64,000 nt of DNA, taken from the NCBI GenBank assembly GCA_947074295.1, contig CAMTPC010000004.1, positions 3 through 64,002 on the forward strand, in the 5' to 3' direction. Origin of the DNA: an uncultured Bacteroides sp. Lineage in GTDB: Bacteria > Bacteroidota > Bacteroidia > Bacteroidales > Bacteroidaceae. The notes beneath the pieces were generated by a model that worked only from the letters and a program-made list of their open reading frames with translations, did no database searches and was not told where the DNA came from. Shown piece by piece: positions 25,199 through 33,061 of this stretch; within the stretch, counting starts at the first letter, position 1; each line of letters starts with the position of its first letter. A program made the position numbers and the translations under genes.

Positions 25199-25272
25199 GG
25201 GGATTGTATGCAGCCAACTTGCCAATAGATAAAATAAATCAGCAATTTTGAATGATTTCTAGAGTTTCTTCT

Positions 25273-25280
25273 TATTTTTG
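25273..25280 (+). promoter_or_regulatory. Sigma-A -7 box of the biotin operon
   Basis: TATTTTTG, with TTTG at 25247-25250; lies upstream of the leader ATG at 25310. Confidence 0.6.
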
Positions 25281-25309: not shown

Positions 25310-27718
25310 ATGAAGAACAACATTCATAAACAATCTCCTTCTTTTTTGCGCTTCAGACAATGGAGTCGAAAGAACTATGCCTCTTTTGTGAGCATAGGCC
25401 GAGAAGTGACCATAGGACAACTACACTATCAACTTACAGATTGTTCGCTGGCCAAGCAAAATGCCTTTCATAAACACTTATCACATATTCTTATGACAAT
25501 TAACGACTTGAAAAGTCGGGTGCTTACTGGTGGAGAAATTACTCCAGAAGAAGCTGCTTGGCTGGCTCTATATGCGTGTCGTGAGGAGCTCTATGCAGCT
25601 GCACATGAGATAACGCATCAGTGCGCTTCGCGCGAATTTGACATGTGCTCCATCATCAACGCCAAATCGGGCAAATGTCCCGAAAATTGCAAATGGTGCG
25701 CACAATCTTCCCACTATAAAACAAAAGCCGATGTATATGATCTAGTATCGGCAGATGAATGCCTCAGACAGGCTTCTTACAATGAAAATCAGGGTATCAC
25801 CCGTTTCTCGCTCGTCACCAGTGGACGAAAACCCAACTCCAAACAGCTCGCTCAACTTTGCTACACTACGCGTCATCTTCGCAAAAACAGCTCCATCCAA
25901 CTTTGTGCTTCTCTGGGTCTACTTACTAAAGATGAGTTGCAAGATCTCTTCGATGCTGGTATCACTCGCTATCATTGCAACCTGGAAACTGCACCATCTT
26001 ATTTCGGTGAACTGTGCACCACGCACACGCAAGAACAAAAGCTAGAAACACTAGCAGCCGCCCGCGAAGTGGGTATGGATATTTGCTGCGGTGGTATAAT
26101 CGGTATGGGTGAATCCCTCGAACAGCGCATAGAATTTGCCTTCACCCTACGTGATCTCAATGTAGGTTCTATACCTATCAATCTACTAAGCCCCATCGAA
26201 GGGACCCCTCTTGAAGGACAATCCTTGTTGAGCGATGAAGATGTTTTGACTACAATCGCGCTGTTCCGTTTTATCAATCCCAAAGCCTATTTACGTTTTG
26301 CTGGTGGCCGTGCACAATTATCTGCCGATACCATGAAACGCGCCCTCTATGTGGGCATCAACTCGGCTATCGTGGGCGATCTGCTGACCACAATCGGATC
26401 TAAGGTAGACGAAGACAAAGAGATGATTCTCGACGAAGGTTATGAACTGCCTGTATCGGGTTTTGACCGAGAACATTTGTGGCATCCCTATACCTCTACC
26501 ACCAATCCACTACCCGTGTACAAAGTAGAAAGTGCCGAAAGGTGTACCATCACCCTAAGCAATGGACAGCGACTAATAGAAGGAATGTCATCATGGTGGT
26601 GTGCCATTCATGGATACAACCACCCTGTATTGAACAAGTCCATAGAGGAGCAAACCAAGAAGATGGCGCATGTGATGTTTGGTGGTCTGACTCACGATCC
26701 GGCAATCGAGTTGGGTAAGTTGTTGCTTTCCATCGCGCCACCGTCGATACAAAAGATATTTTATGCCGATTCGGGATCGGTAGCAGTAGAGGTGGCGATG
26801 AAGATGGCTGTACAATATTGGTATGCGGCTGGAAAACCCACCAAAAACAATTTTACGACGATACACAATGGCTATCATGGTGATACTTGGAATGCCATGT
26901 CTGTATGCGACCCTGTAACGGGTATGCATAGCTTGTTTGGCAGCACCCTACCCGTACGTCATTTCCTACCCCGTCCAGCATCACGCTTTGACGGAACATT
27001 TGATAGTGCTGACATTGAGCCGCTGAAAGAATTGCTAGCGGCAAAGGCCGACGAAATAGCTGCCTTCATCTTGGAGCCTATCGTGCAAGGTGCTGGCGGT
27101 ATGTGGTTCTATCATCCCGAATACATACGTCGAGCTGCCGAACTTTGTCGCCAACACGATGTGTTGCTTATTTTTGACGAAATAGCGACTGGATTCGGAC
27201 GAACTGGTAAACGCTTTGCTTGGGAACATGCTGAGGTGGAACCAGATATCATGTGTATCGGGAAAGCATTGACAGGAGGTTACATGACTCTTTCAGCTGT
27301 ACTAACTACTAATGTAGTGGCGGATATGATTTCTAATCATGCACCGGGTGTATTCATGCATGGCCCCACCTTTATGGGCAATCCATTGGCTTGTGCCGTG
27401 GCCAGCGCATCGACTCGCCTTTTCATCGAATCAAATTGGGAAGGAAATATACAACGCATTGAAGAGCAATTAAGAAAAGAGCTTGCCCCCGCATGCGAAA
27501 TGAAGGTAGTGAATGATGTCCGCATACTGGGTGCTATCGGAGTGATCGAACTAAAACAACCCGTAGACATGGCCTATATGCAACGGCGATTTGTAGAGGA
27601 GGGTATCTGGATACGTCCATTCGGACGTTTGGTATATGTGATGCCACCTTATATCATTCGAGAAGAGGAATTGACAAAACTGACTAGCGGCATGCTGAAA
27701 ATCATCAATGAGCTATGA
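25310..27718 (+). CDS. bioAB: Fused biotin synthase (radical SAM) + DAPA aminotransferase BioAB; enzyme domain begins ~25493 after a 61-codon in-frame leader
   Basis: [11 protein letters not shown] radical SAM motif, [17 protein letters not shown]; then [52 protein letters not shown]. Confidence 0.93.
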
Positions 27719-28866
27719 GACTATACGATGAACTGCAACAAGAGTTAGATACCTTAAAACAAAAGGGTAATCTACGCCGTCTATCCGACATGATACATGA
27801 TGGAAAGATGATTTGCGCCAATGGTCAAGAGATGCTGAATCTTTCATCGAATGACTATCTAGGGCTAGCCACACGCCAAGATTTGCGCGAAGCATTCAAT
27901 AAGGAGCAATCGGGTAAAGGTGAATTATTTACTAGCTCTTCGAGTAGGCTATTAACGGGTAATTTCGCCATTTATGGAGTAGTTGAACAGCGTTTGCGTG
28001 AGCTTTTTGGTGCAGAAAATGCATTGGTCTTCAACAGCGGATACCATGCTAATACGGGAATCTTACCCGCGATATGCACTTCAGACACTTTGATACTTGC
28101 TGATAAATTGGTTCATGCCAGTATCATTGATGGGATTCGTCTTTCATCGGCCAAATACATTCGCTATCGCCACAATGACTATGGACAGTTAGAAAAACTT
28201 CTGGAAAAACATCAAGGAGAGTTCAATCATATCATCATCGCAACGGAGAGCATCTTTAGCATGGATGGGGATGAGGCGGATTTAAAGAGGTTGGTAGCAT
28301 TGAAAAAGCAATACGACAATGTCTATCTCTACGTAGATGAGGCTCATGCATTCGGGGTTAGAGGGAGGAAAGGACTTGGACTTGCCGAAGAACTGGATTG
28401 CATTCACGATATAGATTTCTTGGTAGGCACATTCGGAAAAGCGCTGGCTTCGATGGGCGCATATATTGTGTGCCGGGAAGTGGTGCGCGAGTATCTGATC
28501 AATCGGATGCGTACGCTGATCTTCACCACTGCATTGCCACCCATATGCCTAGCTTGGACTGATTTTTTACTGCAACATCTACCTAGCTTTACAGCAGAAC
28601 GGAAACAGCTACAAGTATTGAGCCGGTTATTGAAACAGTTGATAGAGGATAAGGGATTTGTTTGTCCATCGACCAGCCATATTATTCCACTCATCATCGG
28701 GCAAAGCAGTGAAGCTATCCTAAAAGCTGAGCAGTTGCAGAAACATGGCTTCTATGCACTTCCTGTACGCCCACCCACAGTACCTGAAGGTACTTCTCGA
28801 CTACGTTTTTCACTAAGTGCTGCTTTCACTGTGGAAGAGCTTGAACCTTTAAGAAGTTTATTATGA
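27715..28866 (+). CDS. bioF: 8-amino-7-oxononanoate synthase
   Basis: [44 protein letters not shown]; ATGA overlap. Confidence 0.95.
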
Positions 28867-29516
28867 AGTATCACTATATCACTAATGAAAATCGTCCTAG
28901 TCTGACACTCTTCTTTGCGGGTTGGGGAATGGATCAACATCCTTTCGAACAATACCAAAGCAAGGATAGCGATATGATTATCGTTTATGATTATCGCTCG
29001 CTAGAGTTGGATGAATCAATATTGAAGAAATACGATAAGATATATCTAGTGGCTTGGTCTATGGGAGTTTGGGCGGCTACTCAATGTCAATTTCTTGCAT
29101 CGCTCCCTATCAAAAGGAATGTGGCAATAAATGGAACACCTTGGCCTGTGGATGATGTTTATGGTATTCCAGAAGCGATCTTCAAAGGCACGTTGGCAGG
29201 ACTGAGAGAGGCAACATTGCGTAAGTTCCAATTAAGGATGTGTGGCAAAGGCGATGTATTTCGTCAGTTTCAAGCGGTGACACCACAACGCTCGGTGGAG
29301 GAATTAAAAGAAGAATTGGCTGCTATTGGTGAGGTTTGTAAGGTGTCTCCGATTTCGAATTTTCGCTGGGATGAAGCCTATATTGGTGAAAATGACTTGA
29401 TTTTTCCTGCCAACAACCAGAAAGCTGCATGGGAGAAAGCGGGCGTAGAAACAAAAACAGGAGATGCAGCGCACTATGATGTTGCTGTGTTTAAACACTA
29501 TTTAAATAGCATTTAA
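28863..29516 (+). CDS. bioG: Pimeloyl-ACP methyl ester esterase, BioG (DUF452) family
   Basis: FFAGWGMD, AWSMGV nucleophile, AINGT..P, D.IFP..NQ, HY; between bioF and bioC. Confidence 0.88.
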   Translation: MKYHYITNENRPSLTLFFAGWGMDQHPFEQYQSKDSDMIIVYDYRSLELDESILKKYDKIYLVAWSMGVWAATQCQFLASLPIKRNVAINGTPWPVDDVYGIPEAIFKGTLAGLREATLRKFQLRMCGKGDVFRQFQAVTPQRSVEELKEELAAIGEVCKVSPISNFRWDEAYIGENDLIFPANNQKAAWEKAGVETKTGDAAHYDVAVFKHYLNSI

Positions 29517-30293
29517 ATGGGAAATACAACCATGAATAAAACACTGATTACAGAAAGGTTTACCAAGGCAGCACATACCTATGGGCATGAGGCTGAAGCT
29601 CAAAAAAGGATAGCCGAGCACATGGCGGCTCTTCTGGGCTCACATCTGCATAATTTCTGGCCGAATAGAATTGCTGAATTTGGATGTGGCACAGGGAATT
29701 ATTCCAGACTACTCTTTAAACAATACTTCCCAAAGGAGATGTTGATGAATGATATATGTGGGGAGATGCGCCACTGCTGCAAGGAATTATTGGAAAAGGG
29801 CGCACAATTTGAAGTAGGAGACGCTGAGCACTTTTGCTTCCCAAAAGAGTGTGATTTAATCACTTCTTGCTCCACCTTACAGTGGTTTGATAATCCCAGT
29901 GTTTTTTTCGGACATTGTAGCCAATATCTTGGGCAACAAGGATATCTAGCTTTCAGCACTTTTGGTCTCGACAACATGAAGGAGGTGCGACAAATTGCGG
30001 GGTATGGTCTACCCTATCGTTCGTTGAGCGAACTGATTGAAGGGCTTCAACCCTACTACGAGATCGTACATGCCGAGGAGCAAGTATTAACCTATCATTT
30101 CGACCATCCTATGTCAGTGCTACGCCACCTCAAACAAACGGGAGTGACTGGCATCACGTCACAACAATGGACACGCGGCCGACTCAATGACTTCTGTGAT
30201 GCCTATCAACTTCAATTTAAGAGTAGTAAAGGTGTGTCACTGACTTATCACCCCTTATACATCATCGCTAAAAAGAAAAATCATGAAGAATAA
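29517..30293 (+). CDS. bioC: Malonyl-ACP O-methyltransferase
   Basis: RF..A..TY...A..Q, EFGCGTG SAM motif, LQW, LKQTGV, LTYHP. Confidence 0.92.
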   Translation: MGNTTMNKTLITERFTKAAHTYGHEAEAQKRIAEHMAALLGSHLHNFWPNRIAEFGCGTGNYSRLLFKQYFPKEMLMNDICGEMRHCCKELLEKGAQFEVGDAEHFCFPKECDLITSCSTLQWFDNPSVFFGHCSQYLGQQGYLAFSTFGLDNMKEVRQIAGYGLPYRSLSELIEGLQPYYEIVHAEEQVLTYHFDHPMSVLRHLKQTGVTGITSQQWTRGRLNDFCDAYQLQFKSSKGVSLTYHPLYIIAKKKNHEE

Positions 30294-30927
30294 TATAATA
30301 TTTGTCAGTGGTATCGATACTGACGCAGGTAAAAGTTATGCCACTGGTTATATCGCCAAACAGTGGCTGAATGAAGGCAGACACATTATCACACAAAAAC
30401 TGATTCAGACGGGTAATATGGGACGATCGGAAGATATAGAATTGCATCGCAAAATCATGGATTTGCCATTATTGGAAGAGGATCTTTCTGGTGTCACCAT
30501 GCCTCAGATCTTCTCTTATCCTGCATCTCCCCACTTGGCAGCACGAATCGATGGAAAAAACATCGATTTTAAAAAGATAGATGAGGCGTCGCAAATACTC
30601 TCTGAGAAATATGACACAGTATTACTAGAAGGTGCAGGTGGTTTGATGGTGCCACTTACAGAAGATTATCTTACCATTGACTATATTGCCGAAAGAAACT
30701 ATCCTATCCTATTTGTCACATCGGGAAAATTGGGCAGCATTAACCATACTCTTTTGAGCCTAGAAGCCATAAAAAAAAGAGGTCTTACACTACACACGGT
30801 AGCGTATAACCTCTTTCCAACTGTGTCGGATACAACAATCCAACAAGATACAATGCAATTCATCAAGAACTATTTAGCCAAACACTTTCCGGAAACTGAC
30901 TTTGTGATAGTGCCGGAGTTGACTTAA
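30283..30927 (+). CDS. bioD: Dethiobiotin synthetase
   Basis: GIDTDAGKS P-loop, SPHLAA, EGAGG..VP, LGSINHTLL. Confidence 0.95.
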   Translation: MKNNIIFVSGIDTDAGKSYATGYIAKQWLNEGRHIITQKLIQTGNMGRSEDIELHRKIMDLPLLEEDLSGVTMPQIFSYPASPHLAARIDGKNIDFKKIDEASQILSEKYDTVLLEGAGGLMVPLTEDYLTIDYIAERNYPILFVTSGKLGSINHTLLSLEAIKKRGLTLHTVAYNLFPTVSDTTIQQDTMQFIKNYLAKHFPETDFVIVPELT

Positions 30928-30930
30928 ATC

Positions 30931-32310
30931 CTAGGCCAACATCTCTACTCCACTCTTGACTTTTCTTTTGTCCAACCAATATATAATCAGCACACAAAGG
31001 AAAGTCATAAGTTCGGAAATGGGTACTGCCAGCCATACACCTGCATCACCCCACCATAAAGGAAGTACTACAAAGCAAAGCAGCATGAATATGAAACCAC
31101 GCAATACGGTAATAATGGTAGCATTGCGGATGCGCTCAATACTCTGGAAATAACCTATCGAAATGATGTTCACTGCAAATGGAATAAAGCCCAATGCAAA
31201 TAACGGAAATCCTTTTGTGGCAATAGCATGCGCGGGCTCTGTTGAACTAATAAACATCGAAACGATATAAGAATCAAAGCAAATAGTCAATAAAATGAGA
31301 CTTGTGCCAAAGATTAAAGCTGTTTGTAAGGCTACACGGAAAGTGTGATTAACTCTACTCAGATCATTAGCACCATAATTATAGCTTATGATAGGCTGAG
31401 CTGACTGAGCTATTGAATTATACATCATAAAGATGATAGGAAAGAAATAGCAAGCTATGCTGAATGCTGCGACGCCTTCTTCACCCATATAGGCCATAAA
31501 TACATAGTTGCCACAGAGCATCATAGAGGCAATGGCCAACTCACAGAGAAATGACGAAAAACCAAGGTTGCACATGTAAATCGTGTTTCGCCAAGTCAAT
31601 CGCATACTGTTGCGACTCATCTTGATACGCACAAAATGCAACTTGCTACTACGCTTGAAAAGGAAACAAAGCATCATCACTACACCAATAATAGTGCCTA
31701 CACCCGTAGCTAAAGCCGCACCAAAGATGCCCCAGTCGAAAACGAATATCCAAAGATAGTCCAATATGATGTTGATGACAGCAGCCACTATAGAGCAAAT
31801 CATAGCAAAACGTGGTGCACCACTAAGACGCACAAAGAAGCCCGATGAAACGATCAAAGCATTGGTCGTGAGGAAAGGTACAAACCCGTAAATATAGTCA
31901 CGTCCCAACTCCATCAACCGCTCAGAACATCCAAAAAGAACTAGTACTTGATCTGTAAAAATCAGAACTAATGCCGAACATATCAATAGAAATAATGAGG
32001 ATATAGAGAGCGCTTGCGTCATATTGATACGAGCAGCTTTATCTTTACCCGTTGATAAATGGATAGAGGCAACAATAGAAGCACCCATACCAAACATCAA
32101 ACCGATTCCTGTAGAAAACAAGAAAAGAGGTGCAGTGATATTAATGGCAGCCAAAGCATCACTGCCTAAACCATGCCCTACAAAAATGCCATCTGTAATA
32201 ATGAATACGGCATTGAACAACATACCCAAAAGTGTGGGATACAACATTTTGCGAAATAATGAAGGGATATTTTCGCACCCAAAATCAATCTTATCTTTCA
32301 ACTCTTTCAT
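30931..32310 (-). CDS. MATE family efflux transporter (MepA-like)
   Basis: DGIFVG..LG..ALAA, NIILDY.F..GI.GAALAT, QPIISYNYGA; start set at ATG 32310, downstream of the promoter. Confidence 0.9.
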   Translation of the reverse strand: MKELKDKIDFGCENIPSLFRKMLYPTLLGMLFNAVFIITDGIFVGHGLGSDALAAINITAPLFLFSTGIGLMFGMGASIVASIHLSTGKDKAARINMTQALSISSLFLLICSALVLIFTDQVLVLFGCSERLMELGRDYIYGFVPFLTTNALIVSSGFFVRLSGAPRFAMICSIVAAVINIILDYLWIFVFDWGIFGAALATGVGTIIGVVMMLCFLFKRSSKLHFVRIKMSRNSMRLTWRNTIYMCNLGFSSFLCELAIASMMLCGNYVFMAYMGEEGVAAFSIACYFFPIIFMMYNSIAQSAQPIISYNYGANDLSRVNHTFRVALQTALIFGTSLILLTICFDSYIVSMFISSTEPAHAIATKGFPLFALGFIPFAVNIISIGYFQSIERIRNATIITVLRGFIFMLLCFVVLPLWWGDAGVWLAVPISELMTFLCVLIIYWLDKRKVKSGVEMLA

Positions 32311-32340
32311 AACCTTTATCCTAATATTGAAAACTGCGTG

Positions 32341-32386
32341 CAAAGGTAGAGGTAGTTGATGGCATAAAAATTACCAAATGGTAATT
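32341..32386 (-). promoter_or_regulatory. MATE promoter: -7 box TACCTTTG plus palindrome AATTACCA-N2-TGGTAATT (candidate site for the adjacent Crp-family regulator)
   Basis: -7 box 32341-32348; perfect 8-bp inverted repeat 32369-32386. Confidence 0.65.
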
Positions 32387-32479: not shown

Positions 32480-33061
32480 ATGGAATCATTCAAAGATAAA
32501 CTTTGCAAAGAATATGCCTTGACTGTAGAGCAAGCTGACCTGCTAATCTCGGAAATGAATCAAATGGACTTCAAGAAAGGAGATTATGTGGTACGCGAAG
32601 GCGAACGCAACACCAACTTTTATATTCTAAAAAGTGGCGTTTGGCGAAGCTTCAGAATGAATGATGGAGAAGAGATGACCTTATGGTTTGCCTCAAAAGG
32701 AGATTGTGTATTTGCCATCTGGGGCTATACCAATGACAATGTTTCACAAACCACTATAGAGATTGAAGCGGATAGTAGTGCATTAGTTATTTCCAAAAGT
32801 AGAATTGATGAACTATGTCACCAATCTATTGAGATGGCCAATCTGATACGGACAATATTTGAGAATCATGCACTGTGGGCAGAGAACTTCCTAATTTTCT
32901 TCGCCGATCATGTAAGCGCTCAACAACGTTATCAAGCCATTATGCAAAAGAGCCCAGAACTGTTACAACAGGTTTCACTAAAGAAATTAGCTTCCTATCT
33001 CTATGTCACTCCACAATCCTTGAGCCGCATACGCGCTGGAATGAAGAAATCTAAAGAGTAG
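32480..33061 (+). CDS. Crp/Fnr family transcriptional regulator
   Basis: cNMP-binding barrel (KKGDYVVREG, G.E.T.WF), C-terminal HTH LASYLYVTPQSLSRIR. Confidence 0.9.
   Translation: MESFKDKLCKEYALTVEQADLLISEMNQMDFKKGDYVVREGERNTNFYILKSGVWRSFRMNDGEEMTLWFASKGDCVFAIWGYTNDNVSQTTIEIEADSSALVISKSRIDELCHQSIEMANLIRTIFENHALWAENFLIFFADHVSAQQRYQAIMQKSPELLQQVSLKKLASYLYVTPQSLSRIRAGMKKSKE

Follow-up and report, generated by a model that had tools for sequence, protein, structure and literature searches.

Among the described systems closest to the leader reported here are TnaC and SpeFL of enterobacteria, which respond to tryptophan and ornithine, respectively: both are short leaders of about tunnel length, conserved at the amino acid level, aromatic and rich in arginine (PMC8429421; 10.1101/604074). 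They arrest at the stop codon and turn expression ON by blocking Rho. Eukaryotic cases are the fungal arginine attenuator peptide (AAP), named in PMC8429421, and Arabidopsis CGS1, cited in PMC11890864. Neither of these two is coupled to a terminator, and their ligands are amino acids or SAM. In AAP and CGS1 MTO1, arrest induced by the end product represses a biosynthetic gene, the peptide being a uORF or the N-terminus of the enzyme. In E. coli pyrBI a terminator is masked by the ribosome, and the input is UTP-dependent pausing of RNA polymerase. In S. gallolyticus pil1 a leader ORF is translated into a terminator hairpin for read-through, with repeat slippage as input (PMC3894217). The leader amino acids are conserved in neither pil1 nor pyrBI. 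Control of biotin genes has been described for DNA-binding repressors with operators (BirA/bioO, BioR and BioQ), of which BioR is the repressor of a biotin regulon. The BirA and BioQ biotin regulons are listed in PMC6593275.

In the window analysed here (the whole stretch of DNA, 64,000 nucleotides long), bioB-bioA is preceded by a leader with relatives in other Bacteroidales. It has the same peptide traits as TnaC and SpeFL, and like them it stands upstream of metabolic genes, with control proposed to act via transcription termination; amino acid conservation and a cis 5' position at genes of one metabolite are also traits of arrest peptides. However, its conservation ends in the middle of the ORF, arrest would give OFF through an intrinsic terminator, the proposed signal is a vitamin cofactor, the leader also occurs fused to enzymes and to a signal peptide, and no sequence similarity to TnaC or SpeFL was found. 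Repression by the end product, through a uORF or an enzyme N-terminus, is proposed here and is the mode of action of AAP and CGS1, whose sequences are unrelated and whose ligands are present at far higher concentration. With pil1 and pyrBI the Bacteroidales uORFs have in common a leader running into a terminator (36/36 here) and no antiterminator, whereas the conserved amino acids set them apart, and the window copy is a fused variant in which the terminator is lost. The uORFs also recall the trp and leu attenuators, with a leader ORF and a terminator before a biosynthetic operon, but stalling would give OFF and not ON; a trp-type attenuator was rejected because there is neither a control-codon run nor a terminator/antiterminator pair. 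Biotin synthesis and uptake genes are co-regulated by the BirA/bioO, BioR and BioQ repressors as well, while here BirA is too short to hold a wHTH and an operator was not found. By analogy, the leader would work like a sensing peptide of the TnaC/SpeFL/AAP type combined with a masked terminator of the pyrBI/pil1 type, and it is homologous to none of these.

The features of the locus are listed in the table. A first-pass annotation of this DNA had placed a -7 promoter upstream of the leader ATG and had described a 61-residue segment running in frame into a second start, where BioB begins. The box was confirmed, with a predicted 5' UTR of about 25 nt, and the frame of 61 codons is stop-free into the second ATG and on to the end of the 802-aa ORF, in which the BioB match (TIGR00433) begins at residue 77 and the BioA match (TIGR00508) at residue 390. 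BioB orthologues lacking the motif start at the Met equivalent to this second ATG. All 25 fused relatives retain this Met, at a distance of 12-20 codons (mostly 13-14) downstream of the conserved Lys, although the linker in between is variable. No terminator-like hairpin precedes it in the window copy, where spacer and hairpin appear to have been lost by deletion, so that the AU-rich region from which bioB was initiated is now part of the frame; one fusion (L189) still holds the entire tail and terminator.

Table. Features of the leader-bioB-bioA locus of the window, with examples of the associated genes from other loci
Feature	Position	Strand	Basis or remark
Possible -33 element TTTG (Bacteroidetes housekeeping promoter)	25247..25250	+	22 nt 5' of the -7 box; consensus inference
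-7 box TATTTTTG (TAnnTTTG)	25273..25280	+	Sequence; predicted TSS about 25285
Leader start ATG and 13 variable basic N-terminal codons	25310..25348	+	Length fixed, sequence free
Conserved leader core, residues 14-50	25349..25459	+	Alignments, pN vs pS
Two small hairpins	25352..25397	+	Weak, unconserved; not regarded as functional
Codon of K49	25454-25456	+
AU-rich variable linker, terminator-free	25460..25492	+	pN 0.31; probably the old bioB initiation region, now read in frame
Retained BioB start Met	25493..25495	+	13 codons after K49
Leader-bioB-bioA fusion ORF, 802 aa	25310..27718	+	ORF, family matches
bioF	27715-28866	+	Operon remainder (27715..30927 in all)
bioG	28863-29516	+	Operon remainder
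bioC	29517-30293	+	Operon remainder
bioD	30283-30927	+	Operon remainder
Probable MATE-type transporter converging on bioD	30931-32343	-	Translation only
Divergent Crp-like gene	32480-33061	+	Translation only
TonB-dependent receptor, example	L050:3474-5528	+	Family often auto-annotated as B12 or iron receptor
TonB-dependent receptor, example	L053:6575-8644	-	As above
C92 amidase, example	L179:5417-6244	-	Motif on the amidase

The counterpart in B. thetaiotaomicron, BT_1442, has a mapped TSS, which is primary in all three tested growth phases (PMC7366714). This TSS lies 5 nt past the same TAnnTTTG box and 28 nt ahead of the leader ATG, and the ORF of 804 aa carries the motif at its start, so that the model species shares the fused design; as in the window, the version is terminator-less and the BioB Met is kept. 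In about ten metagenome relatives found by matching the BT_1442 promoter (within L228-L307), the leader opens with a GTG codon in place of ATG, its spacing to the TSS being unchanged.

An exhaustive search of 1.84 billion representatives gave 381 relatives of the leader at E<=1e-3. An HMM made without the window matches the window leader at E 4e-23, and an HMM built from 34 TonB-receptor N-termini has the window leader as its sole significant match in a six-frame search of the genome (E 4.7e-10); the leader is therefore not a chance reading frame. No second copy was found in the window's genome, and a first search for near-length homologues found none. Searches of Pfam, NCBIfam, Rfam and PDB sequences gave no match, hence no homology to a described peptide family, and the ESM Atlas gave nothing usable. 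AlphaFold predicts an ordered beta-alpha-beta-alpha model for the 47-aa core (pLDDT 84, pTM 0.50), and fold searches were uninformative with a model of this small size (Foldseek best E 5.3, best Z 2.3, Atlas TM<=0.53).

Conservation is limited to window residues 14-50 and ends abruptly after K49-Q50, with F15, W18, F26, I35, G36 and K49 invariant or nearly so. Residues 15-38 are common to the TonB-receptor N-termini, while 39-50 are specific to the copies at bio genes; the conserved stretch thus ends at Lys49 in the bio-type and at Leu38 in the receptor-type copies, Lys49 being invariant in the former and missing from most of the latter. The start Met mostly lies 12-14 codons (median 13) before the first invariant Phe in every class, and this constant distance supports 25310 as the real start. 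Against the nearest relative (L001, protein 87% identical), pN is 0.023 in the core, where pS is 0.48, compared with 0.075 in BioB, 0.31 in the linker and 0.38 in the N-terminal leader codons: the core is more strongly conserved than BioB itself. Information by codon position is 0.88/1.11/0.32, Arg CGN and AGR as well as Ser TCN and AGY codons are both in use, and all synonymous codons occur. From this analysis it is evident that purifying selection acts on the peptide, over core codons 14-50. The earlier proposal had been a nascent-peptide or RNA module, to be checked by comparing selection with RNA structure; the peptide part was supported and the RNA part was not, RNAalifold finding no consensus fold.

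We then consider where the motif occurs. Among 151 Bacteroidales genomes, all 65 matches at E<=1e-3 belong either to bioB/bioA (21) or to a single TonB-dependent receptor family (44), which agrees with the association that the HMM survey of downstream genes had been suggested to look for. In the Bacteroidaceae, matches were found in 128/150 genomes, nearly always as one copy each, and 36/37 bioB genes have the motif directly upstream; model species B. thetaiotaomicron (BT_1442) is among the carriers. In a sample of the phylum (301 genomes), convincing matches were found only inside Bacteroidales, where the mini-peptide is widespread and apparently undescribed. The motif is absent from 19/42 bioB-positive Bacteroidales (~45%, bio genes) and from about 31/75 receptors; the sampled genomes are related, so co-occurrence counts are not independent.

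Five layouts were observed: a uORF before bioB/bioA, which is the commonest bio layout, a fusion to BioB or BioAB, the N-terminus of the receptor's signal peptide, a uORF before the receptor, and the N-terminus of a C92 amidase preceding a plain receptor. The first-pass annotation had mentioned a similar motif in front of some TonB receptors and in small ORFs close to bio genes, and both forms were borne out. In every layout the motif stands on the first ORF of its unit. A TAnnTTTG box mostly comes immediately before it and lies <=80 nt from the leader start in 32/37 uORF-bioB loci; in ten uORFs the ATG is 5-8 nt past the box, and these would be leaderless. Motif-less BioB and receptor orthologues have ordinary N-termini, so the motif is an add-on dispensable for the proteins. 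It is detachable, moving to whichever ORF comes first, including the amidase before a plain receptor.

Several individual loci deserve mention. Tandem copies, with a bio-type uORF directly before a motif-led receptor and no strong terminator between them, occur in L013 / L063 (G098), a bioB-less genome. At the N-terminus of one receptor (L016 / L034:6566-8650, minus strand) the complete bio-type motif with its Lys precedes the hydrophobic signal region, which makes this a possible intermediate form. The motif-less bioB genes of L089, L092, L093, L095, L097, L100, L101 and L106 have an N-terminus unlike the window's type and apparently represent a second BioB lineage in Bacteroidales. In P. distasonis a uORF-bioB-bioA-bioF operon lies on a sequence listed as a plasmid, maybe a chromosomal contig (L333, NZ_OY725812.1), and its uORF is annotated as hypothetical protein WP_005854776.1. 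The uORFs of L192 and L193 contain remnants resembling a signal peptide and a TonB box, and in L053 and L070 a hairpin separates the receptor stop from bioB; together these suggest the order receptor-terminator-bioB, then uORF, then fusion.

The uORF form coupled to a terminator was absent from the first-pass annotation, and it supplies both a mechanism and its polarity. A terminator hairpin of <=-10 kcal/mol followed by a U-tract was found in 36/44 uORF loci, at a median of 21 nt before the downstream ATG (15-30 nt before bioB, in the commonest bio form), and is weak or absent in the other 8/44; shuffled sequences average about -4 kcal/mol, and only 1/20 motif-less bioB genes has such a terminator. 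In all 36 terminator loci the motif frame reaches the hairpin, with its stop <=12 nt before it (one ribosome footprint), compared with 1/36 for each of the other frames, the frame being set by the motif and not by its openness. In these loci it stays open for 128-239 nt beyond the Lys, a spacer that exceeds the need of a simple masking model, and every uORF has >40 codons after the core. No antiterminator was found in the uORF leaders (arm complementarity, mean z -0.33), and the terminator is retained in 30/31 whole-leader folds. The tails evolve much faster than the cores (pN/pS about 0.5-0.75 vs 0-0.2, in 7/8 pairs), which indicates that the tail mainly has to stay open. From the open-frame geometry, the missing antiterminator and the weakly constrained tails, it appears that read-through depends on the presence of a ribosome at the hairpin. 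A coupling of transcription and translation has been suggested for Bacteroides (PMC11685472). Between +48 and +77 after the first Phe the tails show a weak pattern (an acidic patch, Pro and a Leu-rich stretch) that may be left over from the TonB-box region of the receptor or may serve a separate function. One 236-aa uORF without terminator (L010:1464-2181) shares about 170 nt with bioA in another reading frame, so that its output geometry differs.

The receptor linked to the motif is single-copy, falls below every NCBIfam cut-off and lacks a closely related solved structure; the receptor-type motif is the n-region of its Sec signal peptide. Within the Bacteroidales it is present in 8/42 bioB-positive vs 67/109 bioB-negative genomes, and across the phylum in 3/102 vs 53/99 (both genes in 3/201). 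One family splits exactly (26 bioB + 7 receptor = 33) and the exclusion recurs in several families, in which related genomes are not independent. In two genomes the receptor stands directly before bioB; no orthologue was found in the window's genome (88% complete). We infer that the receptor is a candidate outer-membrane importer of biotin, and it is this role that would connect the leader with biotin and not just with bioB. A Peptidase_C92 (YiiX/YaeF) amidase is repeatedly found upstream of the receptor, among others in L042, L049 and L108, and in nine loci (L177-L185, with Pfam run on L177 and L179) it carries the motif itself; it is a candidate biotinidase that would free biotin bound in biocytin or peptides. 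The strict association in genomes, the place on the first ORF and the uORF-terminator geometry all favour the earlier idea of a portable module for biotin synthesis and uptake genes.

A repressor of the classical kind is difficult to accommodate. The only BirA of the window's genome is a 251-aa ligase without N-terminal extension, as had been anticipated in the claim that it lacks a DNA-binding domain, and a wHTH would not fit into it; 150/151 Bacteroidales genomes have a single BirA of similar short length, most open frames measuring 243-290 aa. The absence of an operator palindrome was also upheld, the best BirA-type score being 10/14, at background level. Control of the BirA/bioO type was consequently rejected, with neither a wHTH-bearing BirA nor a palindromic operator at the promoter.

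We therefore considered how the peptide itself could act. The leader is very probably translated, and it is highly likely to be a cis-acting, biotin-linked regulatory peptide controlling biotin genes. In the working model the nascent leader would make the passage of the ribosome through the first ORF conditional: with sufficient biotin, the ribosome would arrest or drop off at or just past the core, around codons 38-50, and with scarce biotin it would read through. In the uORF layout an arrested ribosome would fail to mask the terminator before bioB/bioA and transcription would stop. In the fused layout of the window and of B. thetaiotaomicron, arrest would directly block the synthesis of BioB-BioA and probably also obstruct the retained BioB start, 39 nt past K49, with polarity carrying the effect to bioFGCD; in the receptor layout it would block the putative biotin importer whose signal peptide starts with the motif. 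Any stop of the ribosome at the core turns the uORF operon OFF, and for genes of biotin synthesis and uptake OFF should match biotin sufficiency. Conditional arrest, which we regard as the probable mode of action, is favoured above all because a single arrest event would account for every layout, with OFF as the outcome; the arrest position is a putative one, and since conservation ends at different residues in the two classes, a single arrest site is not obvious.

The nature of the signal is a more delicate question. Free cellular biotin is far below the millimolar range. Tunnel sensors, on the other hand, have been assayed at about millimolar ligand (5 mM Trp, 10 mM ornithine; PMC8429421; 10.1101/604074). 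This comparison weakens direct sensing and makes an indirect signal at least as likely. Free biotin or biotinyl-AMP in the tunnel is a rather doubtful candidate, and a protein reporting biotin status (holo-BirA, a biotin carrier) or a downstream metabolite is a tentative one. The complete proposal, that Bacteroidales sense biotin on the ribosome through a portable module of about 36 residues arresting translation by biotin or biotinyl-AMP, in the tunnel or via the ligase, with the receptor as biotin importer, seems to us evenly poised between right and wrong.

The alternative that survives best, still unlikely in our opinion, is that the peptide acts after leaving the ribosome, with a trans factor binding the beta-alpha-beta-alpha module and controlling either the ribosome that follows or how stable the fused protein is. 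Such a factor could be a protease, a chaperone or holo-BirA, the last perhaps by biotinylation of the invariant Lys, and in the window the leader would then provide BioAB with a feedback tag or with a degron that depends on biotin. BirA responds to biotin at physiological concentrations, the modelled core is ordered, Lys49 is invariant in bio-type copies, and the codons following the core in every uORF suffice for emergence. However, this Lys is the residue missing from most receptor-type copies and its context is unlike the AMKM biotinylation motif; moreover, a degron leaves the terminator and open-frame geometry of the uORFs unexplained, and in the fused copies the linker, although short at about 13 codons, has a conserved length.

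A coupling to the ribosome that needs no ligand, either a constitutively slow or pausing sequence that keeps the basal level low or a sensor of general translation or membrane-export status (SecM-like, released by pulling), serving the biotin genes as a mere damper, is quite improbable. The terminator geometry requires only a ribosome, the receptor form is a Sec n-region, and the BT_1442 TSS is primary in every growth phase tested, all of which would suit it; but the confinement to biotin synthesis and a bioB-complementary receptor, at about one copy per genome, and a conservation above that of the enzyme are hard to explain without a biotin-specific signal, and the cytoplasmic BioAB fusions involve no export step.

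A structured RNA (biotin riboswitch or protein-binding site) with an incidental reading frame has very little to recommend it. The whole region does fold at z -2.2 vs dinucleotide shuffles, with a slight mean shift of -0.6 to -0.9 z vs synonymous recodings, and one Ser shows an AGY bias. The two hairpins noticed earlier can form, but they are weak (-2.2 and -7.4 kcal/mol), folding does not surpass that of synonymous recodings (z -0.03), and only 20-39% of relatives preserve the hairpin pairs at wobble positions. RNAalifold gave no consensus structure for either class (49 or 52 sequences), no antiterminator was seen, and Rfam, in which a biotin riboswitch is not catalogued, gave no match. With no conserved secondary structure and third codon positions nearly free, a riboswitch or structured cis-RNA was rejected. 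Finally, a non-functional relic, in which the 5' end of a receptor gene donated promoter and start codon, is scarcely credible: the remnants in L192 and L193 and the hairpins in L053 and L070 make a receptor origin plausible, but purifying selection is strong in uORF and fused copies (pN/pS ~0.05), the bio-type second half is not found in most receptors, and 36/36 frames are open to the terminator.

Conditional arrest by the nascent leader is consequently the reading we retain. In the literature consulted, in which subscription journals were largely missing, we found no account of the leader, of an arrest peptide for biotin or of BT_1442 being controlled by biotin, nor a description of how biotin genes are regulated in Bacteroides and relatives; to our knowledge, no arrest peptide sensing a vitamin cofactor has been known before. 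If our reading is true, nascent-peptide sensing would be extended to a trace cofactor, and one peptide would give the same OFF output via three architectures. It would also name a likely biotin importer and a candidate biotinidase, with a bearing on vitamin cross-feeding in the gut, and the module would stand in for a biotin repressor or riboswitch in a dominant gut lineage. The element is a concrete candidate for the control of biotin genes in bacteria without a DNA-binding BirA.
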